Virus record (IMG/VR): IMGVR_UViG_2802429064_000003
From: a virus
Direction: 5' to 3' (one strand)
DNA length: 64,000 bases
Shown here: piece after piece, positions 1 to 27,819 of the stretch
How positions within the stretch are numbered: position 1 is the first letter of the stretch
How the letters are laid out: every line of letters starts with the position of its first letter
Notes under the pieces: model-generated
Told to the model about the DNA's origin: nothing
What the model saw: the letters and a program-made list of their open reading frames with translations, nothing else
Databases searched by the model: none
Made by a program: the position numbers and the translations under genes

Positions 1-111
1 AGACGCCGTGTGGATCGCGCTCTGCGAGATAGCCCGTCAATGGATAGCAGAGGACGAACGATGAACACGCAGGCCAGGACTGCCGACAACACCAACACAC
101 AGGGGGAACCA

Positions 112-1635: not shown

Positions 1636-2285
1636 GATCGATGACCGAATCGAACCTGGCCGTACGCGCAGGAGATCATCCGGTGCACGGCACCTGGCTC
1701 AGCGTGGACGTCGTTGCACTCACCGATGACCCTGAGCCGAAGATCGTGTTGATCGAACGTGCCGGTGCACCGCACAAAGGTGAAATCACCTTGCCTGGTG
1801 GGCTGCTGGCCGCCTGGGAGGGGGAGACCGTCGAGCAGTGCGCGCAGCGCATCGTGCGAGACAAAGCCGGCACTGAGGTGACCGGTGGCGTCGCGGTCGT
1901 CGACGTCGTCAGCGACCCGGACCGCGACGAACGCGGACACACCGTATCTATCGTCGTGGTGGCCCGTGTCCCCGCCGAGGTCAGGGGCGCTGTGCCAGTG
2001 ACCCAGATGCCGGAGGCAATGCCATTCGGCCACACGGCGATCGCCAGGTCGGCGATCCGGCGATTAGAGGAGCGCCTGTTGGTTGACCCGGACACCACAC
2101 GCGCCATGCTCGGCGACGAGACCACCCTCGCCCAAGTTCGCGCGCTGCTCGGTGTCTGCGGCCCGACAACCGCGGGCGCAGCCCGCAAGCGGCTGGACCG
2201 CTCACCGCTATACCGCCGAACCGAGGAGCTGCGTAAGCCAGCGCCAACCGGCCGGCCAGGGCACGTATACCGATTCCTGGTGTAG
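1632..2285 (+). CDS. Nudix hydrolase, likely an ADP-ribose pyrophosphatase type
   Basis: GAGGAGG RBS upstream and an ATGA overlap with nadV. The Nudix box-like segment is GEITLPGGLLAAWEGETVEQCAQRIVRDKAG. NAMPT followed by Nudix is the phage NadV/NatV-like arrangement. Confidence 0.7.
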   Translation: MRSMTESNLAVRAGDHPVHGTWLSVDVVALTDDPEPKIVLIERAGAPHKGEITLPGGLLAAWEGETVEQCAQRIVRDKAGTEVTGGVAVVDVVSDPDRDERGHTVSIVVVARVPAEVRGAVPVTQMPEAMPFGHTAIARSAIRRLEERLLVDPDTTRAMLGDETTLAQVRALLGVCGPTTAGAARKRLDRSPLYRRTEELRKPAPTGRPGHVYRFLV

Positions 2286-2688
2286 GTGCCGCGCCGAGCA
2301 AGGCTACGGTCGCCGATGCGCATAGACGGCGCACGTGTCACCTGCGACCAAACCGCAACGGCTGCAGAGGCTTCACCAGTTGTACGAGCTGACTTTGTCT
2401 GATCCTGAAACGGCGCACAGCCAGGCCGATGACCACCGCGTGCGTTACGTCAACGACCCCTACATCACAGCGGTCTTCGCGCGGTGTGAGGGGCATTACT
2501 GAGGCCGCGACACGCCGAGAAAACCGGCATTTGCCGTCTCAGTTGCTTGTCGGTCATGGGGTGTAAATAGTTAGGCAGTCGGCACGGATGCATGCATCTT
2601 CGACAGGTAGGGAAGCCCGTCGACGATGCATCCACACCGGCATAGATCAGCAACAGCAACTCAACAGCACCAGAAAAGAGGCACTACC

Positions 2689-3339
2689 ATGACCGCTCCT
2701 ATCGCTCCTGCCGCTGTTCCTGTGGCAGCCGCTCCAGCAGCCCCCGCTCCAGTGGCAGCCGCCCCGGTGGCCGCAGCTCCAGCACCGGCCGCTGTTCCTG
2801 GCGCTGCCCCCGTCGCTGCGGCGCCTGTGGCAGCTGCAGCCGTGCCGACCGCCGCTCCTGTCGGTCTGCCGGCGGGTTACGCGGGCGTCAGTTCTGTCGC
2901 ACCCAACATCGGCGTTATCCCGAATAGTGGCGGAGGCGGAATTCCGGAAGAGCACTTCAACAAGCCGATCCTTTTCCGGCTTCTGGGCATCGCTCAGCGC
3001 ACCAGCAAGTACGAGAAGGAGCAGGTCATGGCTCCGACCGTCGACTACATCGTGCTTGATCCGGCCACCGGTCAGTTCACGGAGGCCAAGAACATCACGA
3101 TCATGCAGAAGAACATCCGCAATGAACTGGTGACCTGCTTCCAGCGCGGCGAACAGGCGGTTACCGGTGTCGCGATCAAGGTCCCTACCAACAATGACAA
3201 CGACGCGAAGGTTCTGCGAGCGCTGGACGATCAGAACTCGGGATACGCCGCCGTTGGATACAGCGTCGAGCAGGTGATCGGCTTCCTTCGTGAAGCCGCC
3301 ATCAGCCAATTCCAGTGGTGGACGACGTCCGCCGCCTAA
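2689..3339 (+). CDS. Hypothetical protein with an N-terminal Pro/Ala-rich low-complexity linker
   Basis: ATG at 2689 preceded by an AAAGAGG RBS. PAAPVAAAP repeats are followed by a globular C-terminal domain. A terminator lies downstream. Confidence 0.55.
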   Translation: MTAPIAPAAVPVAAAPAAPAPVAAAPVAAAPAPAAVPGAAPVAAAPVAAAAVPTAAPVGLPAGYAGVSSVAPNIGVIPNSGGGGIPEEHFNKPILFRLLGIAQRTSKYEKEQVMAPTVDYIVLDPATGQFTEAKNITIMQKNIRNELVTCFQRGEQAVTGVAIKVPTNNDNDAKVLRALDDQNSGYAAVGYSVEQVIGFLREAAISQFQWWTTSAA

Positions 3340-3366
3340 TCGGCGAACCGCTGTGTGACGGCATAT

Positions 3367-3404
3367 GAAGACCCGCACTCGCAACTGGGTGCGGGTCTTC
3401 TGTC
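3367..3404 (+). terminator. Rho-independent terminator-like hairpin (12-bp perfect stem GAAGACCCGCAC/GTGCGGGTCTTC, 10-nt loop, T-rich tail)
   Basis: Perfect inverted repeat directly after the stop codon at 3339, followed by TTCTGTCGTC. Confidence 0.5.
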
Positions 3405-3490
3405 GTCATAGGTGTTGCGCTCCGCATGCACCACGCATTAGACCTAGCATCTCGCATGAATATCACTGCCAATGAAAGGCACTTTGAATC

Positions 3491-4057
3491 ATGACTGCCC
3501 TCGATAGCACTACCTACCTCCGGCCGATCAATGCCGATACGGGAGCCCCGACGTTGGCGGTGTACTTCACAGCTGCGCTGTTCGACATCCTGCGCGCTCA
3601 CGAGTACGACCTCGCCAAACAAACTGATGAGCTCGCAGCTGACGTACGCGATGAGCTGGACCGTCTTGGAATCGGTATTCGCCCAACGATCACGCATGGC
3701 CGCATCCGCATCATGCAGGAGATTGAGCCCGACGAGAGCGGCGTGAATCAGACACCGATGGTGTTCTCCACGGTGATCGCCTATCTCACCGACGCTGAAC
3801 CGGACGACCCACGACTGTCCGCGTTGGCCGAGGGATTTTTCGGAGAACGAGTCGATGCCCATGTCGAGTTCGAAATCCCCACGACCGCCAGCGAAGCCGC
3901 GCTGCAGGAGGAAGAGCGCACCAACGCAGAAGCGGCGCGCCGGTACACCGCGAAGGCAGACTCTGAAAGGGCTGCAGCTGCTGAGAAATATGCCAAGGCG
4001 GGTGCCAATCCCTTCGACTCCGAAGTGATCGGGGACATGAGAAACCTGTTCGACTGA
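3491..4057 (+). CDS. Hypothetical acidic protein
   Basis: ORF with a balanced composition. An upstream AT-rich leader contains GAATATCAC, partially similar to the palindromic operator flank. Confidence 0.5.
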   Translation: MTALDSTTYLRPINADTGAPTLAVYFTAALFDILRAHEYDLAKQTDELAADVRDELDRLGIGIRPTITHGRIRIMQEIEPDESGVNQTPMVFSTVIAYLTDAEPDDPRLSALAEGFFGERVDAHVEFEIPTTASEAALQEEERTNAEAARRYTAKADSERAAAAEKYAKAGANPFDSEVIGDMRNLFD

Positions 4058-4429
4058 GCTACCGGAAGGCCGGAGGCGGGTGCAGGAAGCGCCCCCGTCT
4101 CCGGCCTTGTTCATGTCATAGGTCTGTGTCCCCATTGCCCGGCCTCAAATCGCGCGGGCAGAAAGGTGTTGCCGCTGTGAAGCGCTCTGTCGACCCTGCT
4201 GCGAGAACCCCCGATCGAATCGCTGCGGATGTCTTCTTGACCCGTGCCAAGAAGTTGGAGGGGATGGGTAAACATGCTGAGGCCCATGAGCTTCGAACGC
4301 GAGCCAGGCAACTTGTCGGGGACGTGACCGGCGGCTCTCGGGAGTCGACGAGAGGGGAGGGGGCAACGTGTCCTGCCATGTTTGCGCGTGTCGCGCGCCG
4401 AGTGTTGTCTACGCAACGCAACTGATCTA

Positions 4430-4446
4430 TTCTCCATTTTAGAGAA
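4430..4446. promoter_or_regulatory. Operator/promoter palindrome, variant TTCTCCATTTTAGAGAA
   Basis: A 17-bp inverted repeat of the TTCTCTA-N3-TAGAGAA family, 19 nt upstream of the ATG at 4466. Confidence 0.55.
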
Positions 4447-4465
4447 CTTGGAATAGGTGGTAGTC

Positions 4466-4774
4466 ATGTTCAGAACGGCAGCTTTTCGCCGCATGGCGTT
4501 GGCGGGAGCGTTGACGACGGGTGTCGGCGGTACCGCTACAACCCTTGTGCCTGGCATGAATCACTGGCCGACCGCGTCGGTGGCCGTTGTTGTCGCCGTG
4601 GTCACTGCTGTCGGCGGCATCGTGAGAAAGCTCCTGCACGTCGCCCTGATCGCCATCATCGTGACCGGGACCTTGCTCGTCGTCGACACCGTGACGGGCG
4701 GGAACATTCAGCGCGATCTCAACCTCACCTCGCTGCTGAGTCTGGGGTCCGAACCACGCAGCGAGAAGGGCTGA
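4466..4774 (+). CDS. Small integral membrane protein
   Basis: AGGTGG RBS 5 nt upstream. Highly hydrophobic sequence with multiple predicted TM segments (LAGALTTGVGGTATTLVPG, VAVVVAVVTAVGGIV, IAIIVTGTLLVV). Confidence 0.55.
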   Translation: MFRTAAFRRMALAGALTTGVGGTATTLVPGMNHWPTASVAVVVAVVTAVGGIVRKLLHVALIAIIVTGTLLVVDTVTGGNIQRDLNLTSLLSLGSEPRSEKG

Positions 4775-4779
4775 GGAAC

Positions 4780-4890
4780 ATGGACTTCAACACACCGTTG
4801 CAGAGCTTGCATGGCTGGCCTGCGGCAGCGGTGCTCATCGCCATCGTCGTGGCGATCGCTGCTGTTTTGATTGCCGGGATATGCCAGTGA
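4780..4890 (+). CDS. Putative 36-aa membrane peptide (MDFNTPLQSLHGWPAAAVLIAIVVAIAAVLIAGICQ)
   Basis: GAGGAA RBS. One hydrophobic helix. Overlaps the start of the next gene. Too short to appear in the ORF track. Confidence 0.35.
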   Translation: MDFNTPLQSLHGWPAAAVLIAIVVAIAAVLIAGICQ

Positions 4891-5225
4891 CCCGCCGCCT
4901 GGTCCCCCGCATCGTGGCGGCATCGCTGATTTTCGGTGGCGTGGCTGGGTCAGTGGTGGGGTGCAGTACGGACACCCTGCTTCCCGGGTTCGAGAGCCCT
5001 GCTACACCAACGACGAGGCCGATTCCGGTCCCGGCGCCAGAGACGAAAACCCCCAATGTCGATGGCGGGTTCAGCACCTACTGGATGCTTCTTCCTGGTG
5101 GCAAGGAGAAGGTGCTGTGTTACGAGCACGCCTATGACGGCGACCCCCGCTACAACCATGTGAACGGCGTTGCTGCCGACTGTGATTGGAACGATAAGCA
5201 GCCGGTCGCTGGTGGTGACAGGTGA
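4881..5225 (+). CDS. Putative secreted lipoprotein
   Basis: Signal peptide with the lipobox-like SVVGC|S, followed by a Pro/Thr-rich linker. Confidence 0.55.
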   Translation: MPVTRRLVPRIVAASLIFGGVAGSVVGCSTDTLLPGFESPATPTTRPIPVPAPETKTPNVDGGFSTYWMLLPGGKEKVLCYEHAYDGDPRYNHVNGVAADCDWNDKQPVAGGDR

Positions 5226-12956: not shown

Positions 12957-13910
12957 CTATCGAGCGGCGGCATTGTCGGAAACTGCTGCCGAGTCCCTCG
13001 CGCGCTCTTCTGCGCGCTGCAGCAGGCGCCAGATTCGGCCGGCGTAGGCGTCCTTGGTGATCGGTGGATCGGCGTTGGCTGCAAGCTCGCTCATTCTGGC
13101 TTCCGGGTTCTCCAGGCGTAGTCGCGCCGCCTCTGCCAGCTGTGGTGGCACGTCATCGCCGAGGATTCGGAGCGCACGCCCCACTGATTCGGCTTGGTCG
13201 TGTGCCGCCTGGATGAACCTGGATCTGTTGGCAGCCTCGAGGTTCTCGACGCGCAGCGATTCGCGGTGCGTGCTCATGAGGGTGTGCGCAGCTTCGGGTG
13301 CTCCCACGGCTATGAGGAATCTACCTATCTCCGGGGTTTTGCGAATCTCGAATACATCGACAGATGCTCCGTCGCGGGTGTATTCGCGCATCTGAGTCTG
13401 TACTCCGTGGCGGCGGGCGAACCCACCGAGTGCCATCGCCGCTGGGGCAGTCGGGCACACAACCTCGAGGCGCGGTCGGCGCAGCTCGTGGGTGATGATC
13501 TGTCCGCGTGCCAAGAACGCACCGCGAAGTGCGGCTGCCGCGTCAGCGCGTGTGCCGGCGACCACCGTCGGCGCCATCCCTACCACCGGTCGACCCGACG
13601 GGCTGAGCAGGCCCACCTGCACCGCTAGGTTGTGGGCGCGATGTATCTGGCGCACCTTGAAGGTTCCCGCCGAGAGCTCGAACGCGCGCGGCGCCGCATC
13701 GAAGAGCTTGGTGATCTCGTTGCGCAAGAACACCGCGGCTTCGCGCGTATCGAGCTCGACGTCGATCCAGCAGCGGCGGCCCTCACTGAAAAACCCGCCG
13801 CCGAAGCGCAGCATCGCTGAGACCTGCGCACGTCTGGTCGAAGGCTTGTCGTGGACGGACGGAAGTACACGATTCAGTTCGTATTTGACCTGTTGCGTCA
13901 GTGGATTCAC
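12957..13910 (-). CDS. WhiA-like DNA-binding protein (degenerate LAGLIDADG scaffold plus C-terminal HTH), paralog 1
   Basis: N-terminus VKYELNRV...RAQVSAMLRFGGG and C-terminal DPPITKDAYAGRIWRLLQRAEE match WhiA signature regions. Confidence 0.6.
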   Translation of the reverse strand: MNPLTQQVKYELNRVLPSVHDKPSTRRAQVSAMLRFGGGFFSEGRRCWIDVELDTREAAVFLRNEITKLFDAAPRAFELSAGTFKVRQIHRAHNLAVQVGLLSPSGRPVVGMAPTVVAGTRADAAAALRGAFLARGQIITHELRRPRLEVVCPTAPAAMALGGFARRHGVQTQMREYTRDGASVDVFEIRKTPEIGRFLIAVGAPEAAHTLMSTHRESLRVENLEAANRSRFIQAAHDQAESVGRALRILGDDVPPQLAEAARLRLENPEARMSELAANADPPITKDAYAGRIWRLLQRAEERARDSAAVSDNAAAR

Positions 13911-15809: not shown

Positions 15810-16805
15810 TTACGCACCTGTCAGGAGTCGGACGGCCCCACCGTCGGGGCGCTCTGAATCGAACTCGTCCTGCTCTTCTCCGGCGGCGCGGCGGTCGGCC
15901 ATGATGAGCAACCGCCGCAACCGGCCTGCGACAGCGTCTTTGGTGATGGGCGGCTGGGCGAGCTGCCCAAGCTCTTCCAGAGATGCCTCGCGGTGATCCA
16001 GGCGAAGCTGTCCGGTGTGCGCCAGGTGCTCGGGTGCTTCTGCCCCCAAAATCGCTAGTGCCTGCTTCACCTTGGCCGCCGTGGCTGCCGCTGCTCGTGC
16101 TGATCTACGCGCGTTGGCGTCATCGAGGTTGACCAGCCGGATTGCGGTCGACTGCATTGCGCGCTGAGCGATTCGCCGCTCCCAGGAGATGCGCGACTCG
16201 TCTGCACCGATTCGGGTCAAGAGCGTTCCGATGCTGTCATGGTCGTGAATCACGACACGGTCGATGCCACGAGCGGTGCGCACCATCGACTGAACACCCA
16301 GCCGGCGCGCGCAGCTGGTCAGCGCGAATGCCACTTCGGGGTTGGGGCAGCTGATCTCCAGCGCGCTGGATCGGCTCGGTCCGATCAATGATCCAGCGAC
16401 CATGAAGGCGCCGCGCCAGGCTGCGGCGACCTCGCCCGGTGATCCGCCGACCACCATCGCGGGTAGCCCGGTGACGGGCCGGCCGCGCAGGTCGATGAGA
16501 CCAGTCTGTAGGGCGAGATCACGCCCACCTTCGCTCACGCGCACCGTGTAACGGGCACCACGGCGCAATCCGGTTTCGCTGTTCACGATCACTACTGCTT
16601 TGTGGCCATACAGTGCGGCGATTTCCCGGCGCAGGTACCGCGCGACGGCACCGGTGCCGACCTCGATGTGCACCGTCAGCCCGGTACGGGAGACACGAAG
16701 CTCACCAGCGAGTCGGACGATAGCTGCGACCTGAACACGCCTGCACCCCTGGTGTATTGATGTGGCGCGACTCAACTCGTCACGCACTTCCTGCGTCATC
16801 GACAT
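15810..16805 (-). CDS. WhiA-like DNA-binding protein, paralog 2
   Basis: MTQEVRDELSR...VAAIVRLAGE at the N-terminus. C-terminal LGQLAQPPITKDAVAGRLRRLLIMADRR closely matches the WhiA C-terminal HTH signature. Confidence 0.6.
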   Translation of the reverse strand: MSMTQEVRDELSRATSIHQGCRRVQVAAIVRLAGELRVSRTGLTVHIEVGTGAVARYLRREIAALYGHKAVVIVNSETGLRRGARYTVRVSEGGRDLALQTGLIDLRGRPVTGLPAMVVGGSPGEVAAAWRGAFMVAGSLIGPSRSSALEISCPNPEVAFALTSCARRLGVQSMVRTARGIDRVVIHDHDSIGTLLTRIGADESRISWERRIAQRAMQSTAIRLVNLDDANARRSARAAAATAAKVKQALAILGAEAPEHLAHTGQLRLDHREASLEELGQLAQPPITKDAVAGRLRRLLIMADRRAAGEEQDEFDSERPDGGAVRLLTGA

Positions 16806-16837
16806 CGGTCCTCCTCCTGCGTTTCGTGGTCGGTCTG

Positions 16838-18811
16838 TCAAGCTGCGGTTTCAACGGCGCCGGGGCGCTGGAAGGCCGGGAGCCACTTCTCGGCTTGGGC
16901 GAGTGCGATCAGGTCGCTGAGGTCACGGCGGTCGAGCTGGCCGGCGTCGGGGACTCCCAATTGCGACGCGAAGTCGATCTGCGCATCGGAGGACTTTGCG
17001 CGGGGGAGATCACGCATGTGATCGGGAAAGATATTCTGCGCCAGCGCGTCTGCCTCTGCCAGGCTCAGCCCTTGCAGGTAGCACCGGGGACCCGGTTCGG
17101 TCCACTGCCCATCGAGGCCGACCCAGAACATGCGGTGCACCGTGCTGTCGAAGAATCCGAAGGCCCAATCACGGCCCGCGACGGTCCCCGCGACACCACG
17201 CATATCGGCGAGCATCAGTACGCCTTTGTGGCCGTTGGCGCGGTACACCGAGCGCACGAGGCCCCGAGGGTGGTGTACCCAGCGGATGGTGGAGGTGCGC
17301 TGCGACCAGCTGGAGTCGCCTCGCCGCTGTTTTCCGGCGGCTAGGACGTCGCCGGTAACCGGATCGAAAGTCCGCAGCGGATCTACCCGGTGCAGGTCGC
17401 ATTCACAACCGCAACGGCACAGTCCGAAGGTCAGCGTGCATGTGCATGTGCAGGGGACACTGGACACGGGGTCGCTGGCTGGGCCTGACTCAGACGACTC
17501 GTTCGCACACGTGCAGTTGCATTCACAACCTATTCCGGTGCAGGAGAAGTCGCACTCGTCACTTGTGCAGGGCTGCTGGCAGAAGCAACCGAACCCGTCT
17601 TCGTCGCTCTCCGGTTTCTCGCGGTGTTCGGGGTCCAGGCGGGTCTTGACGATCAGCCCGAGGGATCCGGCGCCCACGAGGTCCACGACGAGAGCGGTGT
17701 CTTTGACGGTTCCGTCTTCGAAGGTGTGTGGCCGCAGTGCGCGCCCTACACATTGGACAAGCCTGGACTGGCTGCGCGTCGGTCTGGCCAGCACGACCGC
17801 TTCGCAGCGAGGGAAGTCTGCTCCCTCGGTGAGCACGTCGACCGTCACCAGCACCTGGGTGCTCCCGTGTCGGAATCGGTTGTAAATGCCGTTACGGACG
17901 CGGGTTTTGGTCTCTCCGACGACCACTTCGGCGGACACGCCTTGTTCGACAAGGGACTTGGCTAGTTGCTCGCAGTGCAACAACGAAGCGCCAAAGACGA
18001 TGGATGAGCGGCCCTCGGTGCGTGTCAACACCGCCTCGACAGTGGCGTTTAGCGTGGTCTCTCGCATCATCGCCTCTTCGGCGACCTCGTCGGAGATGTC
18101 TCCGCCACTACCGGAGGACAGCTTCGAGACATCAAGTTCCGGGAGTTCAACGGTCACGCCTTCTGGCGCGATCAAGAAGCCGTTTTCGATGGCCCAGTTG
18201 ATGTCCCGCTCGAAAACCACTTCTTCCCAGATGGTCCTCAAGGCGGGCTCGTCCCTGCTCGGGGCGTGGCGGATCATCGTCGCGGTGAATCCGGCGCGGC
18301 GCGCGCCCAGAGCAGTGAAGTGGTCGAGCACCTTGCGGTAGGTTCGGGCGGGCGCGTGGTGGGCCTCGTCGACGATGACGAGGTCGCGGTGTCCGATTCT
18401 GGTTAGGGCCGCCTCAGTCTGTAGTGATTGCACTGTGGCCGAGACAATCTGAGCAGTTGGGTCATCGCGATTGCCTCCTCCGATCAGCGAGGGGACGGGG
18501 CCGGCCGGGTTCACCGCTGAGACGGCAATGGCCATCTGCTTGATCAGTTCGTCGCGGTGGGCCATCAGCAGCACCCGGCCGCTGTTGGTCACCTCACGGC
18601 GCGCCAGCTCTGCGATGACGGTCGATTTTCCCGTCCCGGTCGGCAGCACGACCGCCGGTCCCACGACGCCACGGTTGTAGGCAGCGCATACCGCGTCGGC
18701 GGCTTCGATCTGATACTCGCGCAGTGGGCGTGGCTCGTTGGTTGCAGGGGCTGCGACAGGGAAAGCCATCTGCTCTTGATCTGCGGCGGGAGCCAAGTCG
18801 GTGACTGTCAT
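16838..18811 (-). CDS. Superfamily-2 DEAD/DEAH-type DNA helicase (ResIII-like) with a Cys-rich central segment
   Basis: Walker A VLPTGTGKST, motif II VIVDEAHHAP, a helicase C-terminal domain, then CFCQQPCTSDECDFSCTGIGCECNCTC. Confidence 0.75.
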   Translation of the reverse strand: MTVTDLAPAADQEQMAFPVAAPATNEPRPLREYQIEAADAVCAAYNRGVVGPAVVLPTGTGKSTVIAELARREVTNSGRVLLMAHRDELIKQMAIAVSAVNPAGPVPSLIGGGNRDDPTAQIVSATVQSLQTEAALTRIGHRDLVIVDEAHHAPARTYRKVLDHFTALGARRAGFTATMIRHAPSRDEPALRTIWEEVVFERDINWAIENGFLIAPEGVTVELPELDVSKLSSGSGGDISDEVAEEAMMRETTLNATVEAVLTRTEGRSSIVFGASLLHCEQLAKSLVEQGVSAEVVVGETKTRVRNGIYNRFRHGSTQVLVTVDVLTEGADFPRCEAVVLARPTRSQSRLVQCVGRALRPHTFEDGTVKDTALVVDLVGAGSLGLIVKTRLDPEHREKPESDEDGFGCFCQQPCTSDECDFSCTGIGCECNCTCANESSESGPASDPVSSVPCTCTCTLTFGLCRCGCECDLHRVDPLRTFDPVTGDVLAAGKQRRGDSSWSQRTSTIRWVHHPRGLVRSVYRANGHKGVLMLADMRGVAGTVAGRDWAFGFFDSTVHRMFWVGLDGQWTEPGPRCYLQGLSLAEADALAQNIFPDHMRDLPRAKSSDAQIDFASQLGVPDAGQLDRRDLSDLIALAQAEKWLPAFQRPGAVETAA

Positions 18812-19578
18812 GCAGCGCCTCGCTGTTCGGCGATCGCGGCGCCGAGCGTGAGAACGAAGTCACCGCCAGTGACGTACAGCCCGTCAGCTGCGGCCACCGT
18901 GATTGCGCGGCAAGGCTGATTGGGAACCTGCTCGAACGCAACGATCTCGCGGCGTAGTTCGTCGTCGCGCCCCCACAACGGCACGAGGCTGTATCCGGCT
19001 CCGTGCCGAACCCATGTAGGTAGTCCGCCTAGTGAACGGATCAGAGAGCCGGCGGCGGCCAGCGCCATGGAGGGAGCCGACGCTCCGATGCTGGACCGCG
19101 TGCCCAGTACACCGGCGAGCGTTTCGCGCCGCTGTGAGACGTCCGCGGTGAGGTACCGCCAAAGAAGGCCTGCGTCAGTAGCCTCGCCGCTGCGCAGTTC
19201 GGACCCGAAGGTTAGGGGGTCGACCGGGAGACCAGCGGCCTCCGGGAACGCAACGGCTGCCGCAGTCGGGATCGTCCAACGCGGTGCACCTCCCGGCAGC
19301 ACCAGATTGGCGCAGATATCAGCGGTGCGATAGATGCCGATCGCGCCGGTGGCGCCGTCACGAGCCTGCCACAGAGTTTCCGCGGCTACGTCGGTCTTGG
19401 CGCCGTCATCGAAATGCAGACGCGCCATCGAAACGGATCCGATGTCGTTGACGGCAAGAACCGGTATCGGGGTTCCATCGGACCCAAACACCGTGTCGCC
19501 GGGGACGAGATCGTCCAGCCGGCGGAATCCGTCAGGGGTCGGTATCGCCGTGTCGAGCGGCTGTGCGTGAGTGTTCAC
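18808..19578 (-). CDS. Hypothetical protein, weakly Hint/intein-like at its N-terminus
   Basis: AIPTPDGFRRLDDLVPGDTVFGSDGTPIPV resembles Hint block A, but block B is not seen. Low certainty. Confidence 0.4.
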   Translation of the reverse strand: MNTHAQPLDTAIPTPDGFRRLDDLVPGDTVFGSDGTPIPVLAVNDIGSVSMARLHFDDGAKTDVAAETLWQARDGATGAIGIYRTADICANLVLPGGAPRWTIPTAAAVAFPEAAGLPVDPLTFGSELRSGEATDAGLLWRYLTADVSQRRETLAGVLGTRSSIGASAPSMALAAAGSLIRSLGGLPTWVRHGAGYSLVPLWGRDDELRREIVAFEQVPNQPCRAITVAAADGLYVTGGDFVLTLGAAIAEQRGAA

Positions 19579-20372: not shown

Positions 20373-21523
20373 AAGCTGACCGCCGTCGTCGCCGCCACGG
20401 TGACCACAAGTGCAGGACCTTCGACGGTGAGCTCGACGAACGCCGACAGCACGTTCAGAGCGGGCAGGACATCGCGAGCAAGCGCTACCAAGTCGGTTCC
20501 GGCATCGAACGCGAATTTGTTCCCGGCACTCAGGTCGATCGGCACGCGCAGATTGAGTCCGCCACTGACCACCTGGGACGGGGATGAGTCAACGGGTGCT
20601 GCCGGTGTAAGAGCCGAAGGTGCGGGCTCCTCTGTGGCGCTCGGGGCGGCGACGATCGGCGCCGAGAAAGCAGGTGCGGGAGCCGGTTCCACCGGTGTGG
20701 TGGTGGGCTCAACGATAACCGGCGCCACCGAGGCGGGGGAGGGCGCAGGAACCACCGGAGGCGCAACAGGCTCGGCTACCGGCGCTGCGGCGACTTCGGG
20801 CTCTGCGACAGGGGCCTCGGAGCTAAGTGCCGCAGCTGCTGCGACGATCGCTTCGAGATCCTTGCGGGTGATACGCCCGCGACTGCCGGTTCCTGTCACG
20901 GTCGATAGGTCGATGTTGTGCCGGGCTGCGAATGCCCGCACGCTGTCCGACACCGGCACCGAGACAGCTTGCGCAGCTACCGATTCGACACTCGGTGCTG
21001 CGACAACCGGTGCAACCACTGGTGCCACATCAACGGCGCCAACGACCGTGCCCTGGGCATAGACCGGTTCAGGCGCCGGGGCGGGTTCTGCGGTCTGTGC
21101 CGGTTGAGCAGCCGCAGCTGGTGCAGAGATCGGGGCCACCGGAGGGGTGACAGATGGCGCGACCGGAGGCGGTGTGACCGGAGCGATTCCGGCGATCGGG
21201 GAAGTCGAGGGTGCCGGCTCGACGGCAGCCACGGTCACTGGAGTGACGGCGGGAGCGGCTGGCGCAGGTACGGGGACCGGCTCAGACGAAGTAACCGGGG
21301 CATCTAGAACGGCTGTGGGAGCCGGAACAATCGGCGCCGCGGTGTTCAAGGGTACGACCGGCGCAACGGGTGCAACCGGGCTGACCGTTGGTGTGGCCGG
21401 AGCTGCCGGCGGTGCAACGGGCGCAACGGGAGCGGCCACCGGAGCGACAACAGGCGGTGCGACAGCGGCGGCGGGCGGGTGTGTGATGTCACTGAGTGCG
21501 GGAACGGCTGCTGGTGCAGACAT
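20369..21523 (-). CDS. Pro/Ala-linker protein containing an E2-type peripheral subunit-binding (E3-binding, PSBD) domain
   Basis: VRAFAARHNIDLSTVTGTGSRGRITRKDLEAIV is a near-canonical PSBD, flanked by long PA-rich linkers such as those in 2-oxoacid dehydrogenase E2 proteins. No lipoyl or catalytic domain. Confidence 0.55.
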   Translation of the reverse strand: MSAPAAVPALSDITHPPAAAVAPPVVAPVAAPVAPVAPPAAPATPTVSPVAPVAPVVPLNTAAPIVPAPTAVLDAPVTSSEPVPVPAPAAPAVTPVTVAAVEPAPSTSPIAGIAPVTPPPVAPSVTPPVAPISAPAAAAQPAQTAEPAPAPEPVYAQGTVVGAVDVAPVVAPVVAAPSVESVAAQAVSVPVSDSVRAFAARHNIDLSTVTGTGSRGRITRKDLEAIVAAAAALSSEAPVAEPEVAAAPVAEPVAPPVVPAPSPASVAPVIVEPTTTPVEPAPAPAFSAPIVAAPSATEEPAPSALTPAAPVDSSPSQVVSGGLNLRVPIDLSAGNKFAFDAGTDLVALARDVLPALNVLSAFVELTVEGPALVVTVAATTAVSL

Positions 21524-21560
21524 GGTGGATATCTCCTTGGGTGGTGGGTGAATCAGTTGA

Positions 21561-21604
21561 GTGGAAACGGGCCTCAGGTGTAGTGGAAACGGGCCTCAGG
21601 TGTA
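21561..21604. repeat. Perfect 22-bp tandem direct repeat x2 (GTGGAAACGGGCCTCAGGTGTA)
   Basis: Seen directly in the sequence. Overlaps the 3-prime end of gene 21596-22096. Confidence 0.6.
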
Positions 21605-22096
21605 GCTGAGGTTCAGCGTTGGCGCGGCGACGGAAACCAGCTCGGCGTACACATCGGGGTAGCGCTCCTCGAACAGGTCGTACTTGACCGAGCGCGCCCC
21701 TGCCTTCTGAGTGACCGTGAATCCGTCGTAGACGCCAGGGGTGTTGGCCACGGCGGTGAGCAGCGCGACGCGGACCGCCTTCAAGGCCTTCGCGCACCGG
21801 CTGTTGACGGAGCTCAGGATCTGGCCCTGTCGCGTCGCCGTGGCTGCCCGCATGGACACCTGCAGGACCAGGTGTGCGAGTTCGGCAGCGGGGTCAGCCG
21901 ACGCCTCGATGAACGCCACGATTTCGTCTGTCGACAGAGCCGATGTGGCACCAGTCGGGGCAGGCGCTTGTGGTGCGAGTAGGCCCGCGGGGGCAACCCC
22001 GTGTAAAGGCGGAGCCGTGGGTACTAACGGCGGTGAAGCGGTCATGAGTGCGGTCTCCTCGAAGTGGTCGGTCCGAGTGACGAGGATGTCCGGCAT
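21596..22096 (-). CDS. Hypothetical protein, first gene of the leftward operon
   Basis: The ORF ends at the divergent intergenic region. Confidence 0.45.
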   Translation of the reverse strand: MPDILVTRTDHFEETALMTASPPLVPTAPPLHGVAPAGLLAPQAPAPTGATSALSTDEIVAFIEASADPAAELAHLVLQVSMRAATATRQGQILSSVNSRCAKALKAVRVALLTAVANTPGVYDGFTVTQKAGARSVKYDLFEERYPDVYAELVSVAAPTLNLSYT

Positions 22097-22099
22097 CCG

Positions 22100-23067
22100 G
22101 AGGAGGTGAATCGAATTTGCGAATCATCCACGTTTCCATCACCGGCAATTGCCGTCGTCTCGGTGAGCGTAATGCCGGTTGTGATGCCTACGCAACACCT
22201 GTTCTATTTCTGCGTGTCGTTGTACGCCTGGGGTCTGACAAGTGGGCGCCATCCAGCTCTCAACCTGGGGAAATGTGTGGGGAAGTCGGTGGGGAGTGAA
22301 TGGGCGGCGCGTGGCTAGTTGCCGGTTGTTGCCTGTCACGTCCCCAGGGCATTGCGCGAAAGTAAGTTTCGGCAGATTGGTCGACGGGTTCCCGTCAAAC
22401 TCGCACCAGGCCTCCAACTATGTCTGGCTGCCCGGCATCGACTCACGGCCCGCCCGCCAGCCCCGGCTCTCCGCGGTTGGCGTGAATCTGTTCGTCGTGG
22501 TGTGTAACTTTCCCTGTTGACCTGCGGTTTCTGTCAACAGGGCGTGTACTTGTTGGCCTACCTGCGTGTTTGTGTTGATGCCTTGTAAGTGGGGGGTGCC
22601 TCGGAGACCCCCTCGGCGTGCACATATACACACGCGTTCTGACCGGCTTTGCCTCACGTAACGGGTAAAACAAATAATTAGCTAAACTAATTACATATAT
22701 CTACCTGGGGTTTCTTTATAGACCTACCGTGTGGGCAATTTTATGAAGCCAGAGCCGCGCCGAGGCACCCCCCACCTACAAGGCATCTCCGTAAAACCGC
22801 TGGTAGGCCGAGAAGTGCACGCCTTGTTGACCATTTACGCAGGTCAACGCGGCGAGAAACCGTGCACACCGAACGATTCGCACCACGAAAAAGTGTGCAC
22901 ATCGCAGAGGCGGAAATGTGCAGCAGTGGCGAGCGGCGGCCGGTGTCGGCGAGATCAGCAGTGGCGATATTTCGATGTAGAGATCAGGCGAATGGGCAAT
23001 ATGCCTATTTCGATGCCACCTATCGGCGTGTCGGCAACTAGATGGCAATGATGTCGGCATCGGATGC
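22100..23067. promoter_or_regulatory. Large divergent non-coding control region with several inverted repeats flanking a 100-bp AT-rich core: candidate early promoters, replication origin or site-specific recombination site
   Basis: No convincing ORFs. IR CCCTGTTGAC/GTCAACAGGG (22512-22542) contains TTGACC. A 24-bp IR (22581-22604 versus 22760-22783, one mismatch) brackets the AT-rich core at 22650-22740. Further IRs at TTGACC...GGTCAA and GTGCACAC...GTGTGCAC. Confidence 0.5.
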
Positions 23068-25863
23068 TTGACTGGCCGCGTGTCCGATGAGCCCAACGTG
23101 CCAGTGGTCGATCTGCCGCGTGTCAACGCGGTCGAGTTCCAGTTCTATGACCACACGGTCGGGGCGCATCTAGTTACCGCTGACAAACAGATGGCGAGGT
23201 GGATCGACGAGCTTCGGTCGGCGCCGCCAGCCGCGGTGGCCGTCGATATCGAGACCCATGGTCTTGACGTCAACAAGTTCACCATCACGTGTGTCACCGT
23301 GGCCTTCGAACTCGGTCAAGACATGGTGGCGCTGTTGTTCGATCCTCTGCGCCGTGCTGAACACCGCGGGATGCTGGCGCGGGTCTTCGACCACGCGGAC
23401 CGCCTGGTCTTCCACGGCGCCAGCTTCGACATCGCTCCGCTGTACGCCCACAGGCTCATGACGAAGGCGCATATTCGCAAGCTCGGCGACACGCTGGTCG
23501 CCGCGCGGATGGTGGGGACCAATGCCAAGGCCGGCCGCACACTCGAAGACCTCGCGAACGTGTTCCGCGTGATGGACGACGATCGCACGTCGATGACCGA
23601 AGTGTTCTCCGCTCGAGGACTTAAGAAGGACGACGGTTGGCGGGGAACTGATATCGACACTCCGACCTATGTAGTGGGTGCGTTGTCCGACACCGTCGCG
23701 ACAAAGCGCCTTTGGGGTGTCCCCGGCGTTAACGGACACGGCATCATGGCCAAGGCCGCTCGCTACCTGACGGCCCCGTCAGCGGGTTTCGGCGGCCATG
23801 GTGTTCTCACAGCCACTGACGCTGAAGCACTCGTCGAGGACATCCAGCGCGTCAACGCGATAGTGCTGGAGCGGACGGCACGCGGATACGCGGTCGACAA
23901 AGAGTTCCCCCAGCGTTTCCTTGAAGAGACTGCTGAGCAGACGCGGGCTGCCGCAACGACTCTCGCTGAGGCGGGAATCCGCCCGGGCAATGCCGCTGAC
24001 CTGGTCAACACCCTCGATGCCCGCGGTCTGCTGCACCAGCAATGGCCGCGTACCGACACAGGCCGCCTGAAAGCCGATAAGAAGGCCTTGGAGGTCTTCA
24101 CCGGTGAGCACATCAGTGACGCGCTGAAGAACCCGCTGGTGATGGCGCACCGTGCTGTTTTCGACAACGAGAAGGACCGCGGCTATGTCGAGAAGGTGGT
24201 CGAAAATGCAGGCCCCACAGGGCGCCTACATCCAGAAATCAAGATTTTGGGCGCCAGCGCCACCGGCCGCATGTGCCTGCCCGAGAATCAGCGGCTGCTG
24301 ACCCGCCGGGGCATCGTGTCTGTGAACGAGATCCGGACCGGCGATCGAACCCTGGATGCAGACGGGCGCTGGACGACGGTGCGGGCGGTGCACCGATACA
24401 GCGATGCGCCGCTTCGCCGTTACACACTCGATGATGGAATCGAACTGATTTGTACACCCGAGCACCGCTGGGTTACCGAGAACACGGCCGGTAAGCGCAA
24501 GGTTCAGCCTCTTGACCGTGCGCGGCAATCCGACCACCTACGGCTCACGCCGCCTATTACTCCCGGGGTCTGCGGAGGCGGGAACTCCATGACCGCTCCG
24601 CAGCACGCCGCGTACACCATCGGGCGTGTCACTGTTCAGCTTGCGCGACAACGCACCGGCGAGTTGTCCGATGCTCTGTGCGGTCCAGCCGAGACGCGGC
24701 GCGCGACGGTGACTAGCCTGCGTGAGCGCTGGCAGACCGAAGGTGAAACCTGCTGGGTACCCGAGCATGCGCCACGAGACACCGCGCTGCACTCGGTGTG
24801 CGACAAGTCTCTCGATGAGCTTTGGAACATGCTGGAGGGTGCGAGCCACTACGCCACAAACGTCAGTCACGCTGGTGTCACCGTGCTGCCCACACCCAAT
24901 AGACGCTACGCCGAGGCTTTCGCGCTGGCGGGATATCGTCTCGGTCTGCGATCCCTGATCTTTGACGCGCCTGCAGGGGCCGCCGTCGTGCTACATCGAG
25001 GGCGCTCCAGCCTGGCCAACATGGTTGTGAGTGATGCCGGAGAAGGCGATGTGTGGTGTGTGACAACTGATTCGGGCACATTCACCGCATGGGGCGAACA
25101 TGGCCCGTACCTGACGGGCAACAGTGCGAGCAAGCCGGAAATTCAACAGTTTCCCAAACTGGCACGTGGAGTCATCGTCGCTGATTCGGGTGCCGAGGGC
25201 TGGATTTCGGCGGACTGGAAATCGATCGAACCCGTGGTGCTGGCGACTGCGGCCGGAGACAGGCAGTTCATCTCCGACATGCGCGCCGGCATGGATCCGT
25301 ACGAGCCGGTGGGGCAAGCAGCCGGTATTGACCGCAAGCTTGCCAAGCGAAAGATGCTTGCGGACATGTACGGGCAGGGGCTCAAAGCCGCTTCGCTGCA
25401 ATATGGTTGGTCACTGGATCAAGCTCGGTTCGTTCAGAACACGATCCGCGGATCGCTGCCGATTCTGTACAAGCTGATCGACGCACTCAAGGCGCAGTCG
25501 CAACGATTCGGGCACGTGACCACGCTTACTGGCAGGGTGGTCGATCAGAAGTTCAGCTTCTACGAGGGCGGACGTCTGGTGAGCGATGTGGCACAACGCA
25601 TTGCGCCCAATCACTTCTGCCAAGGCTCGGCGCTGGACATCATGCACTACGCGATTCTCGAATTGGATCGCCGCGGGCTATCTGATCACGTCCACCTATG
25701 GATGCACGACGAGATCGTGGCGGACAAGGAGATCGCCGAGGAGTTGGCGGAAGTCATGGCCACGCCGCCCCCGTTCCTTGAAGCGGTGGCGCAGTACCAC
25801 GGTATCGAGGCGTTCTTGGCCGTTGACGTCAATGAGATGGGCAGCCGATGGGAGTACGTGTGA
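23068..25863 (+). CDS. polA: Family A DNA polymerase (Pol I-like, 3-prime to 5-prime exonuclease plus polymerase domains) interrupted by an intein
   Basis: Exo motifs VDIETHGL and [11 protein letters not shown]. Polymerase motif A region TGRM|C...N|[11 protein letters not shown] is split by a 283-aa insertion. Motif C region LWMHDEIV. Confidence 0.8.
24274..25122 (+). other. Intein (283 aa) inserted in polymerase motif A (TGR|intein|S..PxxQxxP)
   Basis: Starts with Cys in a block A-like [20 protein letters not shown]. Block B is ICTPEHRW. Ends ...[24 protein letters not shown] followed by +1 Ser. The penultimate residue is Gly rather than His, so splicing competence is uncertain. Confidence 0.65.
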
Positions 25864-26138
25864 GTAAAGAGAATTCGTACGCGCGGCTGCACGGGGCACT
25901 CGAACGCGGAGGACACCATGGGGCATCCGCGACCATGCCGACGCTGGCGGAGTTGGCCACCAACCACGTCGCGCATGGCGTCTTGGTCGGCACGAACTTC
26001 TTTGGGATCAACACCGCCCCCATTGCGCTCAACGAGTCCGACCACGTGCGTATGTGGGTACGGGCCGCGGCCAGGAACCGAGAGCGCACTGTCAGCGACA
26101 CGACGCATCACGAGCAGTGGATAGAGGAGACGTCATGA
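25857..26138 (+). CDS. Small hypothetical protein
   Basis: ORF overlapping the polymerase stop. Weak evidence. Confidence 0.3.
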
Positions 26139-26234
26139 GTGGCAGCTACGCACTCGTCATCAGCTGGTGTGACAAAGATACGCCTGGACTTCCGCGCTAT
26201 ATCGAACCCGTCCCCTCCAATCAGCAGGGAGGCA

Positions 26235-27029
26235 ATGATGCTCGGATCTGACCCGATCGCAGCGCTACTCGGCGCCGGGCTCGACGCGCGTTCACCGCAG
26301 GTGGTGTGGAAGGGATACCTGCGCAAGCTCGCAGCCGCGGGTTGTGCAGTGACCATGCTCGGCCCGGACGTCGTAGTTCCCGACGGTCTTGATGACGAAA
26401 CTCTCACTGTGCTGGCGGAACTGACTCAGCGTTTCCCTTCGCAGGCTGCGATGCCGGAGGAGTCCACTGGCAAGCTCTCGGGCCAAGGCCAGGTGGATAG
26501 AACCGGCGAGCAGATCAACGCACGTGTGACCACCTACTACCGGCACATCACCAAAATCGTTGGAGCTCAGCGCGCGCCAGCCTTGCTTGATGCTGGAGTG
26601 ATTACGCCAAGCGCCGGGATCTACATACCGTTTTCGCATATGGTCGCCGTCGCCGTTCCCGACGGGACCGCGCTGGCGCATTGGCGTAGGTGGGCGGCCG
26701 AAACAAGCGGTGACCGCTTCGAGCTTCACACCGCACCAACGCTACTGGTGCCCGGGCTGCCCGGTGGTGGTGTGTACCTGTTCACCACACCGGACACCGG
26801 TGCTGATCACCAGCGCCCCGCCGCCATCGGATACGCACCGGTTACCGGACTGAACTTCGCGATCGGGGACAGCATCGTCAGCGCCGGCCAGGTGACGGTC
26901 CCAATTCCGCCCACGCGGATGGGCGGAGCGCCGGTGATGCGCCTGGGCCCATGCCGGAAGCTGCCAGCCTGGCTGGACGCAGCACTTCGGGAACACGGCT
27001 CCCAGAGCGTGCCGCTGTCGGCCGCGTGA
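26235..27029 (+). CDS. Hypothetical protein (start moved to ATGATG, which is preceded by an AGGGAGG RBS)
   Basis: Strong RBS at 26226-26232. The second ATG at 26238 has the better spacing. Confidence 0.5.
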   Translation: MMLGSDPIAALLGAGLDARSPQVVWKGYLRKLAAAGCAVTMLGPDVVVPDGLDDETLTVLAELTQRFPSQAAMPEESTGKLSGQGQVDRTGEQINARVTTYYRHITKIVGAQRAPALLDAGVITPSAGIYIPFSHMVAVAVPDGTALAHWRRWAAETSGDRFELHTAPTLLVPGLPGGGVYLFTTPDTGADHQRPAAIGYAPVTGLNFAIGDSIVSAGQVTVPIPPTRMGGAPVMRLGPCRKLPAWLDAALREHGSQSVPLSAA

Positions 27030-27109: not shown

Positions 27110-27409
27110 TTACTGCCCGGTCATCTTGCCGCCGGCGACGCTGTGGTCGTAACCGATCGTCTCGTTGATGGCGCCCTGTGTCGAGGTCCGGCAATGCTCG
27201 ACGACACTGTGAACGCTGGTGATCGCCGAGTTCTGCTCACGCGAGAAGTCGGTGGCGGTGTCCATGCCAACGCCCTTAACGGAGCCCGCAAGCTGCTGGT
27301 ATGCCTGAAGCTGCCGGCCCGCGGCTTCGTCGAGGATCTTCAGATCCGTGTCGAGCTTGTGGACGTCGCCCTGGGCTCCGGGGATGTCGAGGTGAAGTTG
27401 CTTGGTCAT
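27110..27409 (-). CDS. WXG100/ESAT-6-like small helical protein (degenerate WXG)
   Basis: 99 aa. MTKQL...QGDV...LAGSVKGVG... has a layout resembling EsxA. AAAGGA RBS. Confidence 0.55.
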   Translation of the reverse strand: MTKQLHLDIPGAQGDVHKLDTDLKILDEAAGRQLQAYQQLAGSVKGVGMDTATDFSREQNSAITSVHSVVEHCRTSTQGAINETIGYDHSVAGGKMTGQ

Positions 27410-27447
27410 GGTTTAGGTCCTTTCCTGAGTCGGTTGTCCGAGGCCGA

Positions 27448-27756
27448 TTACGCTCGCTGCACCGCTTGGGCGCCGCTGGCCTGGCGCTCCAGCTGGACCC
27501 GGATCACTTCACGCGTGCCGGCTACAGCGGCGTCCGCCCGGTTAAGGACCTTCAGCAGCTGGGGGCTGGACTCACTCTCAAACTTGCCCTGGAACGCGTC
27601 CATGGTGTCCGAGATGTAGCTGTGGGCCTGCAGATCGCCAATGGTGTTGCCGATCCGTCCCAGTGCCTGGCGCATAGTGTCGGTCTCGTTCTGCAGGTTG
27701 TCGCAGATCTTGAGTGCGTCTTCGGGAGCGATCGCAACGCTGCCGCTTGTACCCAT
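27448..27756 (-). CDS. WXG100/CFP-10-like small helical protein
   Basis: About 100 aa with a pattern resembling EsxB (DAFQGKFES...VIRVQLERQA). Pairs with the previous gene. Confidence 0.5.
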   Translation of the reverse strand: MGTSGSVAIAPEDALKICDNLQNETDTMRQALGRIGNTIGDLQAHSYISDTMDAFQGKFESESSPQLLKVLNRADAAVAGTREVIRVQLERQASGAQAVQRA

Positions 27757-27819
27757 GTTTTCTCCGATGGTCGTAGCCGATGGGTGATTCCAAGGCAGAT
27801 GGTAGCGCAAAAATCCGCG

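Follow-up and report, generated by a model that had tools for sequence, protein, structure and literature searches.

A large quasi-palindromic module between divergent replication operons is a possible replication origin of a Mycobacteroides abscessus island

Introduction

The herpes simplex virus origin oriL is a 144-bp palindrome with an AT-rich centre that lies between the divergent genes for ICP8 and the DNA polymerase, and the SV40 core origin is comparable. Invertible promoter switches are another described arrangement, represented by fimS, hin, and the invertons of gut Bacteroides. The origin of the Streptomyces plasmid pWTY27 is a 300-bp non-coding sequence with AT-rich parts, short repeats, and a discontinuous inverted repeat (IR) of approximately 105 bp; the plasmid's initiator, RepA, binds this discontinuous IR, a primase/polymerase gene adjoins it, and replication is bidirectional (PMC3583192). 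Here we characterise a 64,000-nucleotide stretch of DNA, catalogued as IMG/VR virus record IMGVR_UViG_2802429064_000003 (hereafter, the window), in which two divergent replication operons are separated by a gap (22046-23079) that holds a quasi-palindromic module.

Contig FVGB01000018.1 (assembly GCA_900132795.1) is 100% identical to the window, which we read as an integrated island of Mycobacteroides abscessus that can probably replicate itself and is perhaps conjugative. M. abscessus is a hard-to-treat pathogen in which mobile elements shape the differences between strains. We tentatively regard the gap as a composite non-coding control region, the left part of which is the promoter of the leftward operon and the centre of which is most likely a replication origin.

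Results

A large inverted repeat surrounds the lowest-GC DNA of the window

The module in the centre of the gap is built on an IR with arms that are complementary at 85 of 115 positions (74%) across a 155-nt spacer (Table 1). The alignment score of this IR is 44, compared to 11.9 +/- 1.8 for 200 dinucleotide shuffles, and it is the best among all 1-kb tiles of the window, where the runner-up scores 17. A first-pass annotation of the region had reported a 24-bp IR pair around an AT-rich core at 22650-22740. Both are present, and the pair is larger than was described: it spans 28 bp with one mismatch (22577-22604 and 22760-22787) and forms the inner end of the 115-nt IR. The core has a GC content of 37%, compared to 62% for the window, and a 91-nt segment beginning at 22656 has the lowest GC content (34%) in all 64 kb.

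Each arm carries an outer mini-palindrome and an inner box, and the two outer mini-palindromes are 310 bp apart. The 10-mer TTGACCTGCG has exactly two sites in the window, one per arm, and is conserved in the two other lineages with full copies of the module (described below). Similarly, the sequence GGGGGGTGCCTC occurs in the window only in the two inner boxes. The hexamer GTGCAC is found four times in 22618-22900, where approximately 0.13 occurrences are expected from its density in the window, and four copies of YCTACC are concentrated in the module. Three weak direct repeats, each in two copies, follow the module on its right. Tandem Repeats Finder (TRF) detects no array, and neither these nor the short hexamer repeats are conserved in the Mycobacterium sp. 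D16Q14 locus.

The further IRs of the first-pass annotation were recovered at 22512-22542, 22827-22847, 22143-22154 (CGGCAATTGCCG), and approximately 22383-22396 (GACGGGTTCCCGTC). Its reading of the TTGACC boxes as -35-like elements was not borne out, as neither strand has a TAnnnT motif 16-19 nt downstream of them; they are half-sites of the outer mini-palindromes instead. A generic sigma-70 scan of the region returned one match, which was no better than matches in shuffled sequences. Elsewhere in the window, a third TTGAC...GTCAA palindrome (TTGACCCCCAGTCAA, 60618-60632) lies approximately 320 bp past the 3' end of the integrase gene, with a different spacing from those in the arms.

Table 1. 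Positions of the module, the conserved blocks, and the flanking genes in the window
Feature	Position	Strand	Remarks
Quasi-palindromic module	22478..22888	.	~410 bp; axis near 22682-22684; limits reached with one indel
Left arm of large IR	22490..22604	.	115 nt
Right arm of large IR	22760..22874	.	115 nt
Outer mini-palindrome, left arm: CCCTGTTGAC-N11-GTCAACAGGG	22512..22542	.	Perfect 10 nt; contains TTGACCTGCG
Outer mini-palindrome, right arm: TTGACC-N9-GGTCAA	22820..22854	.	Core at 22827-22847
Inner box, left arm: GATGCCTTGTAAGTGGGGGGTGCCTCGG	22577..22604		
Inner box, right arm: CCGAGGCACCCCCCACCTACAAGGCATC	22760..22787		
Asymmetric spacer	22605..22759	.	AT-rich core ~22656-22746, 34% GC
Central palindrome TAATTAG-CTAAA-CTAATTA	22675..22693	.	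<=2 nt from large-IR axis
Weak direct repeats right of module	22853..23015	+	Spacings 33-38 nt: CGAGAAACCGTGCACACCG / CGAAAAAGTGTGCACATCG, CAGCAGTGGCGA x2, TATTTCGATG x2
Block A	22100..22250	-	Predicted promoter region: upstream element, -35, -10, leader start
-10 hexamer TACGCT (TAnnnT)	22166..22171	-	T, A, and T columns invariant in 13/13 aligned loci
-35 hexamer TTGCGT (family consensus TTGCAC)	22190..22195	-	18 nt from -10 (family 17-18)
GACAC	22214..22218	-	18 nt upstream of -35
Perfect palindrome CGGCAATTGCCG	22143..22154	.	Just downstream of predicted start; operator-like
TCATCCACG, single DnaA-box-like 9-mer in leader	22124..22132	+	Core ATCCAC nearly invariant in family
Block B GTTGCCTGTCACGTCCC	22328..22344	.	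Family core TGTCAYGTCC (22334-22343)
Polymerase-proximal block	23021..23079	+	GCGTGTCG 23026-23033, TGTCGGCAT 23052-23060, TGCTTGACT 23065-23073
First gene of leftward operon	21596..22045	-	149 aa; Pro/Ala-rich N-terminus; start ATG 22045
Family-A DNA polymerase	23080..25863	+	927 aa from GTG; Pfam DNA_pol_A and 3'-5' exonuclease domain
Primase-polymerase-like protein	26139..27029	+	Two genes after the polymerase; phrog_906 'DNA polymerase/primase', E = 5e-5, weak
Tyrosine integrase	60949-62157		38 kb from gap

The module is conserved in sequence, position, and orientation in three lineages

We compared the region with 14 related loci (L005-L010, L114-L117, L243-L247, L252, and L253), including those of Mycobacterium sp. 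D16Q14 (L005), a Sequence Read Archive contig (L114), and Tsukamurella (L253). Full homologous copies of the module were found only in M. abscessus, D16Q14 (polymerase 76% identical), and the Tsukamurella locus, with a partial copy in L114 (polymerase 87% identical). It occupies the equivalent site in D16Q14 and Tsukamurella, approximately 360-400 bp upstream of the polymerase gene. The other ten loci keep the flanking genes and the conserved blocks, and have unrelated sequence of similar length in place of the module.

The three full copies align from end to end. All have outer mini-palindromes (TTGACCTGCG...GTCAAC) and an inner GGGGGG-NN-CCTC box in each arm; the box is invariant in all three lineages and its flanking bases co-vary between the arms. 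They also share an asymmetric AT-rich spacer of 150-190 nt that has the same orientation and conserved asymmetric motifs (ATTAnC..CTAA), and a small palindrome located within 1-6 nt of the axis. In D16Q14 the counterpart of the central palindrome is ATTAGC-TTT-GCTAAA, at most 1 nt from the axis of its IR, and in Tsukamurella the counterparts are TAATTA and TCATT-GCT-AATGA, 3-6 nt from the axis. Between lineages, at least 15 arm pairs have changed on both sides with complementarity kept, and the two arms of one genome resemble each other more closely (70% and 60%) than orthologous arms of different genomes do (57% and 47%).

Orientation is identical in seven full-length copies (the window, the M. 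abscessus copies L001, L002, L003, and L119, D16Q14, and Tsukamurella), and in another M. abscessus copy, L120, the spacer and right arm are also collinear. The "switch" named in the first-pass annotation is therefore not supported in the sense of an invertible element, given this single orientation.

Alleles are swapped between the arms among M. abscessus strains

Five M. abscessus haplotypes (the window compared with L001, L002, L119, and L120) have ten variable positions in the left arm and four in the right arm. Three of the four variable right-arm sites pair with variable left-arm sites, and at each of them the alleles are swapped between the arms. At the pair 22552/22812 one set of strains carries G/C (L/R') and the other C/G, and at both 22566/22798 and 22588/22776 one set carries A/G and the other G/A. 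The chance of three of four sites being paired is approximately 0.004, calculated by position alone. A simple inversion with a fixed crossover fails to explain the swapped alleles, because the spacer is unflipped in every strain and mismatches lie on either side of the swapped sites. The pattern would be explained if the arms formed symmetric heteroduplexes with each other, or if mirror positions mutated in parallel. In either case, the two arms seem to interact in vivo, or else to have a mutational context in common there.

Several independent short-read assemblies of M. abscessus break at 22604, 22610, 22838, and 22878. The breaks at 22604 and 22610 adjoin a local G6...C5 hairpin (GGGGGGTGCCTCGGAGACCCCC), and the L114 contig also begins within the right arm, its sequence there matching the reverse complement of the left arm at 96% identity. 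We regard these assembly breaks as a consequence of the repeat and the hairpin, and do not take them as evidence of inversion.

The module as a possible replication origin

Our preferred reading, which is tentative and draws on sequence features and on analogy with described origins, is that the module is the replication origin of the island and a platform for initiator binding. The outer mini-palindromes and inner boxes of the arms would load an initiator encoded by the island symmetrically around the DNA that melts most easily. Once the island is excised, unwinding would start at the AT-rich centre and spread to both sides, and the adjacent polymerase, the primase-polymerase-like protein, and the helicases would carry out replication. 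We favour an origin because symmetric, protein-sized sites flank the lowest-GC DNA of the window between the polymerase and helicase operons, because the element has to replicate should it ever come out of the chromosome, and because pWTY27 provides a precedent.

Several results weigh against an origin. The strongest is that the module is missing from 10 of the 14 related loci, from which it follows that the replication gene set does not universally require it. Cumulative GC skew, which had been proposed as a check, climbs evenly across the region without an inflection, although an element that is integrated most of the time should give little signal of this kind. The window has 25 near-matches to DnaA boxes where 31.6 are expected, with no cluster, and two sites with one mismatch fall in the region. 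TRF does not detect the direct repeats, which are weak. Searches of Pfam and PHROGs matched none of the adjacent proteins to a Rep (initiator) family, although these neighbours are unannotated and may include a non-homologous initiator. When considered as initiator or repressor, the products of 149 aa and 384 aa beside the site gave no informative matches, and no protein co-occurs with the module. Furthermore, exchange between the arms could by itself keep them alike without selection, and a purely regulatory module is still a candidate because no polymerase promoter was found.

We also considered a broader proposal, which we find doubtful, that the island belongs to an undescribed family of self-replicating integrative elements of Mycobacteriales in which the quasi-palindrome is the origin and its arms pair in vivo at initiation. 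Pairing as a hairpin, a cruciform, or a synapsis would leave the swapped-allele signature among clinical M. abscessus strains. Such a family would be defined by a gene set of PolA, primase-polymerase, helicase, and WhiA, and is not in the phage and plasmid collections searched.

Alternative explanations for the module

The main rival to an origin is a symmetric operator or looping module that silences or times the polymerase operon, and perhaps the leftward operon, with no role in initiation. A dimeric or multimeric island regulator would bind the outer mini-palindromes, the two G6 boxes, or both, and the AT-rich DNA would be looped out. The conserved parts of each arm are two short, protein-sized patches (the arm middles of D16Q14 are mostly mismatched), and the mini-palindromes resemble classical helix-turn-helix operators. 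An operator would also suit the position of the module upstream of a polymerase gene for which no promoter was recognised, and the retention of the replication genes in relatives that have no module. However, there is no conserved TAnnnT within or beside the module, the operator-like sequence of the arms is found nowhere else in the 64 kb, and no regulator gene co-varies with the module. The AT-rich palindrome centred on the axis and the extreme AT content would also be left unexplained, and we consider this explanation rather unlikely.

It is improbable that the module is a functionless insertion, i.e., a selfish or relic element resembling a miniature inverted-repeat transposable element (MITE), that entered between Block B and the polymerase-proximal block in an ancestor of some lineages and has arms homogenised by recombination. 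The module is single-copy in the window and across 374 loci, scans of viral contigs add none, and no target-site duplication was seen. When viral and metagenome contigs were scanned for the patterns of Block A, the G6 box, and the mini-palindrome, and the results screened with nhmmer, only chance matches were seen. Position and orientation are equal in three lineages that span Mycobacteriaceae and Tsukamurellaceae, and the asymmetric spacer motifs are conserved. What a MITE would account for is the patchy distribution, as presence in 4 of 14 related loci reads as an insertion relative to the others, together with the size, the long terminal IRs, the AT-rich centre, and the non-coding nature of the module. 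Allele exchange between the arms is an available neutral process of homogenisation.

A site for site-specific recombination (an invertible promoter, a multimer-resolution site, or an attP-like site), in which the 7-5-7 central palindrome would be the crossover core and the arms would hold accessory sites, is very improbable. The central palindrome is core-like, the IRs flank a 155-nt segment of a size typical of invertons, alleles are swapped between the arms, and short-read assemblies break at the four positions given above. These breaks are poor evidence, as two of them adjoin the G6...C5 hairpin, which may sequence poorly, and the swapped patches are single sites amid mismatches, unlike the products of a fixed crossover. 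Orientation is equal in five M. abscessus strains, D16Q14, and Tsukamurella, and no flipped spacer was seen in assemblies. No conserved promoter lies inside the segment, and the breakpoint of a rearrangement in L003 (22923) is outside the core. An attP-like site, which the first-pass annotation had also proposed, is effectively excluded, because the only recombinase seen (the integrase) is 38 kb away and integrated copies keep the site unsplit: the region is intact inside chromosomal contigs of 1.2-6 Mb, in which an attP that had served for integration would be divided into attL and attR.

It is scarcely probable that the module acts as RNA, either as a long hairpin in the 5' leader of the polymerase mRNA (for processing or attenuation) or as a separate non-coding RNA. 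The predicted fold of the + strand is very stable (-214 kcal/mol, z = -15.9), compensatory changes preserve pairing, and mismatches that are compatible with G.U pairing are slightly more common on the polymerase-sense strand (22 versus 14). The strand bias is not significant, however, and the - strand folds nearly as well (z = -11.3). A search of 21500-23600 on both strands against Rfam 15 found nothing at E <= 1. Neither a conserved upstream promoter nor a terminator was found, and each arm has two conserved patches instead of a continuous helix. The symmetry of the arms looks to be a DNA-level property, given the lack of a significant G.U strand bias, the good folding of both strands, and the lack of an Rfam match.

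Small proteins encoded in the gap, e.g., at 22242-22520 (+), 22418-22657 (-), or 22731-23051 (+), are most improbable: open reading frames (ORFs) of 76-116 aa are present and GC content at third codon positions (GC3) rises modestly in one phase at 22365-22485, but GC3 is flat with no sustained phase over most of the gap, the five longest ORFs have no Pfam match, indels of 4 nt and 1 nt among M. abscessus variants shift their frames, the ORFs are not kept in D16Q14 or Tsukamurella, and the arm "peptides" mirror the IR with amino acid identity lower than nucleotide identity. This agrees with the first-pass annotation, which saw no convincing ORFs in the region.

Conservation supports a sigma-A-type promoter for the leftward operon

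All relatives have Block A, invariably at a distance of 60-110 nt from the leftward gene on its upstream side, with nhmmer E-values of 1e-16 to 1e-52, and it was aligned in 13 loci. As a candidate RNA element it was rejected: RNAalifold found zero consensus pairs in the 13 sequences, so that the constraint on Block A is one on DNA. The arrangement TTGNNN, 17-18 nt, TAnnnT is kept in 15 of 15 loci. The motif is also present in loci outside the set used to define it, as TTGCGT-17-TACGCT in L252 and TTGCGC-17-TACAGT in the Tsukamurella locus. The mycobacterial -10 consensus is TAnnnT (PMC6448022), and only one of the eight TAnnnT motifs in the gap is conserved, namely the predicted -10 element in Block A. 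The prediction of a sigma-A-type promoter for the leftward operon (P_left), with transcription starting at approximately 22158-22160 on the - strand, is thus well supported by conservation. The first-pass annotation had proposed divergent promoters. The leftward one stands, at 22166-22195 and not at the TTGACC boxes, and no conserved sigma-A promoter was found on the polymerase side.

The -35 hexamer falls inside a family palindrome, GTTGCAnnTGCAAC, which is degenerate here, perfect over 14 nt in L005 and L116, and without recurrence in the window. Upstream of it, the ACGACACGC block that holds GACAC is kept in most relatives and missing from some, and the 5-mer alone is weak evidence. In Streptomyces, WhiA binds GACAC (PMC3781837, PMC10243135), and the occurrence of this motif upstream of P_left could allow recruitment of a WhiA-like protein of the island. 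The counterpart of the CGGCAATTGCCG palindrome in D16Q14 is CGGCA-TC-TGCCG, and elsewhere the site is partly kept. The 9-mer TCATCCACG is a weak lead as a DnaA box, as it matches the consensus at 6-7 of 9 positions and no cluster of boxes is present. Between Blocks A and B, there is a tandem array of 2.5 copies of TGGGGAAATCGG (83% matches, 22266-22295) that is not conserved in D16Q14.

Block B and the polymerase operon

Block B and the polymerase-proximal block are, like Block A, family-wide; Block B was found in L005, L006, L007, L243, L245, L246, and L252. The polymerase-proximal block ends 6 nt before the GTG start codon and also contains TGnTTnAnT; its G.GTGTCG and TG.TT...T columns do not vary among 13 loci, and L252 has the block as well. 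It has no Shine-Dalgarno sequence and no recognisable sigma-A promoter for the polymerase gene. The position of the gene would fit a leaderless mRNA, but the "-10" is TTnnnT and not TAnnnT.

The 927-aa polymerase is the product called in public assemblies. In close relatives (M. aubagnense, Tsukamurella, and others) the polymerase is approximately 640 aa long and aligns with the 927-aa protein in two pieces, which suggests that approximately 290 residues are inserted between the exonuclease and polymerase domains. The insert is possibly an intein or an inserted domain, as one distant homologue has a LAGLIDADG domain. Two stretches after the polymerase gene, 25848-26138 (+) and 27110-27810 (-), are also of note. 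The small protein directly after the polymerase has a PPE-family match in public gene calls. Downstream, a pair of genes of approximately 99-102 aa and a gene of approximately 450 aa are kept in all relatives, an arrangement that recalls Esx-type pairs in view of the FtsK/SpoIIIE ATPases elsewhere in the island.

In L003 (GCA_900138475.1), similarity to the window ends at 22923 (L003 position 5173), and positions 1-5172 hold unrelated genes in place of the polymerase operon. These encode a 325-aa protein with its own AAGGAGG/GTG start, a 410-aa PPE protein, and proteins of 512 aa and 154 aa.

Limits of the gap and the leftward operon

The leftward gene most likely starts at 22045, judging from an in-frame ATG preceded by a GAGGAGA Shine-Dalgarno sequence; the ATG of the longest ORF, at 22096, has none. 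Moving the start to 22045 sets the limits of the gap at 22046-23079. Orthologues of the 149-aa protein (144-167 aa) are found at the same position in all relatives, and the protein has no Pfam or PHROG match. The leftward operon runs from this gene through genes for a DEAD/ResIII helicase and WhiA-like proteins, so the "accessory" label of the first-pass annotation does not fit, whereas its rightward polymerase operon is as described.

The weak matches of another leftward-operon product, a 256-aa protein (18808-19578, -), are to Hint domains, and it also matches the N-terminal parts of terminase-large and DnaC-like loader PHROGs. These matches may reflect an intein-like or P-loop segment.

The island and its relatives

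Public assemblies, mostly of M. abscessus type, contain the 149-aa protein with identical sequence in more than 200 blocks, on contigs that are often 0.2 to more than 1 Mb long. Nucleotide searches of phage and plasmid collections with the region, and with 24 kb around it, found no match, and a search for polymerase-based relatives in viral contigs found none. Syntenic relatives are present in the M. aubagnense chromosome, several other mycobacteria, metagenomic contigs, and Tsukamurella. The Tsukamurella tyrosinosolvens record labelled "plasmid 13" (L254, NZ_LR134455.1, 1-50000; 264 kb, circular) was considered for a GC-skew comparison on a homologous plasmid and set aside, as it looks like a piece of chromosome because it carries cobalamin biosynthesis, lnt, rbpA, and uvrA genes.

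By domain matches, the window encodes a family-A DNA polymerase, a DEAD/ResIII helicase, an E3-binding-domain protein, two WhiA-like proteins, a NAPRTase, a NUDIX protein, two helicases with HA domains, two FtsK/SpoIIIE-like ATPases, an RNase H, and an RNase T-type exonuclease. Helicase genes lie on both sides of the gap. No phage structural genes were found among the 20 window proteins scanned, and the window has no tRNA or tmRNA genes. The two WhiA-like paralogues (12957-13910 and 15810-16841, both -) each have all three WhiA domains, and a WhiA gene is found in a syntenic position in the Tsukamurella copy, too. Positions 1-2285 hold the NAPRTase/NAMPT-like and NUDIX genes (NAD salvage), a pairing that is also found in some phages.

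Discussion

Promoters and palindromic origins are known kinds of element, and the module described here has no detectable homologue outside a small clade. It sits in an uncharacterised family of islands, is conserved across two families of Mycobacteriales, and has an unusual polymorphism at paired sites. The island is present in more than 200 public assemblies and has its own polymerase, a primase-like protein, and helicases. If its origin and promoters were located, it would become clear whether islands of this type replicate themselves after excision, mycobacterial genetics might gain a new replicon, and there would be a concrete case, open to testing, of a long palindromic origin in a high-GC bacterium. 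The polymorphism at paired sites offers an inexpensive population-genetic way to ask whether the arms interact in living cells. Should the module turn out to be no more than a regulatory insert or a relic, what remains is an ordinary promoter region.

Comparison with known systems separates the module from several of them. It resembles MITE and enterobacterial repetitive intergenic consensus (ERIC) elements in being non-coding, 100-600 bp long, flanked by long imperfect terminal IRs, and patchy among relatives, but it is single-copy in the searched set, has no target duplication, and is conserved in position, orientation, and asymmetric motifs across genera. Like the attP sites of phages and integrative and conjugative elements, it has an AT-rich core with a small palindrome and repeated sites over a few hundred bp; unlike them, it is 38 kb from the integrase and intact in integrated copies. 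IRs around a 150-200 bp segment upstream of an operon recall invertons, whereas the module has one orientation, no promoter inside, no adjacent invertase, and arms that are far longer and imperfect. A chromosome-type DnaA-dependent origin differs in that the region of the module has neither a DnaA-box cluster nor a GC-skew switch.

P_left is similar to mycobacterial sigma-A promoters and to promoters activated by WhiA and WhiB in its motifs, spacing, and GACAC, and in the presence of WhiA paralogues in the operon. In contrast to the Streptomyces WhiA promoters, the WhiA-like proteins of the island are diverged paralogues and GACAC is missing in some relatives.

The module shares with oriL and the SV40 core origin an AT-centred palindrome with inverted initiator sites on either side (putative here), and with oriL a location between divergent replication genes that include a polymerase. 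The organisms and proteins are unrelated and those palindromes are shorter and near perfect, so the analogy is one of design only. The theta-plasmid origins of pWTY27, pFP1/pFP11, and SCP2 (PMC3583192) have no sequence similarity to the module, and no RepA or RepI homologue was identified here; the island also differs in being chromosomally integrated, in its family-A polymerase, in the asymmetric AT-rich spacer of 155-190 nt, and in the weakness of its direct repeats. The short repeats in both orientations of these origins may have counterparts in the locally enriched GTGCAC and YCTACC and in the weak direct repeats. What the module has in common with these origins is that it is non-coding and lies beside replication genes, including one for a primase/polymerase (primase-polymerase-like here), and that it combines an AT-rich stretch with a long discontinuous IR, of approximately 105 bp in pWTY27 and with 115-nt arms here.

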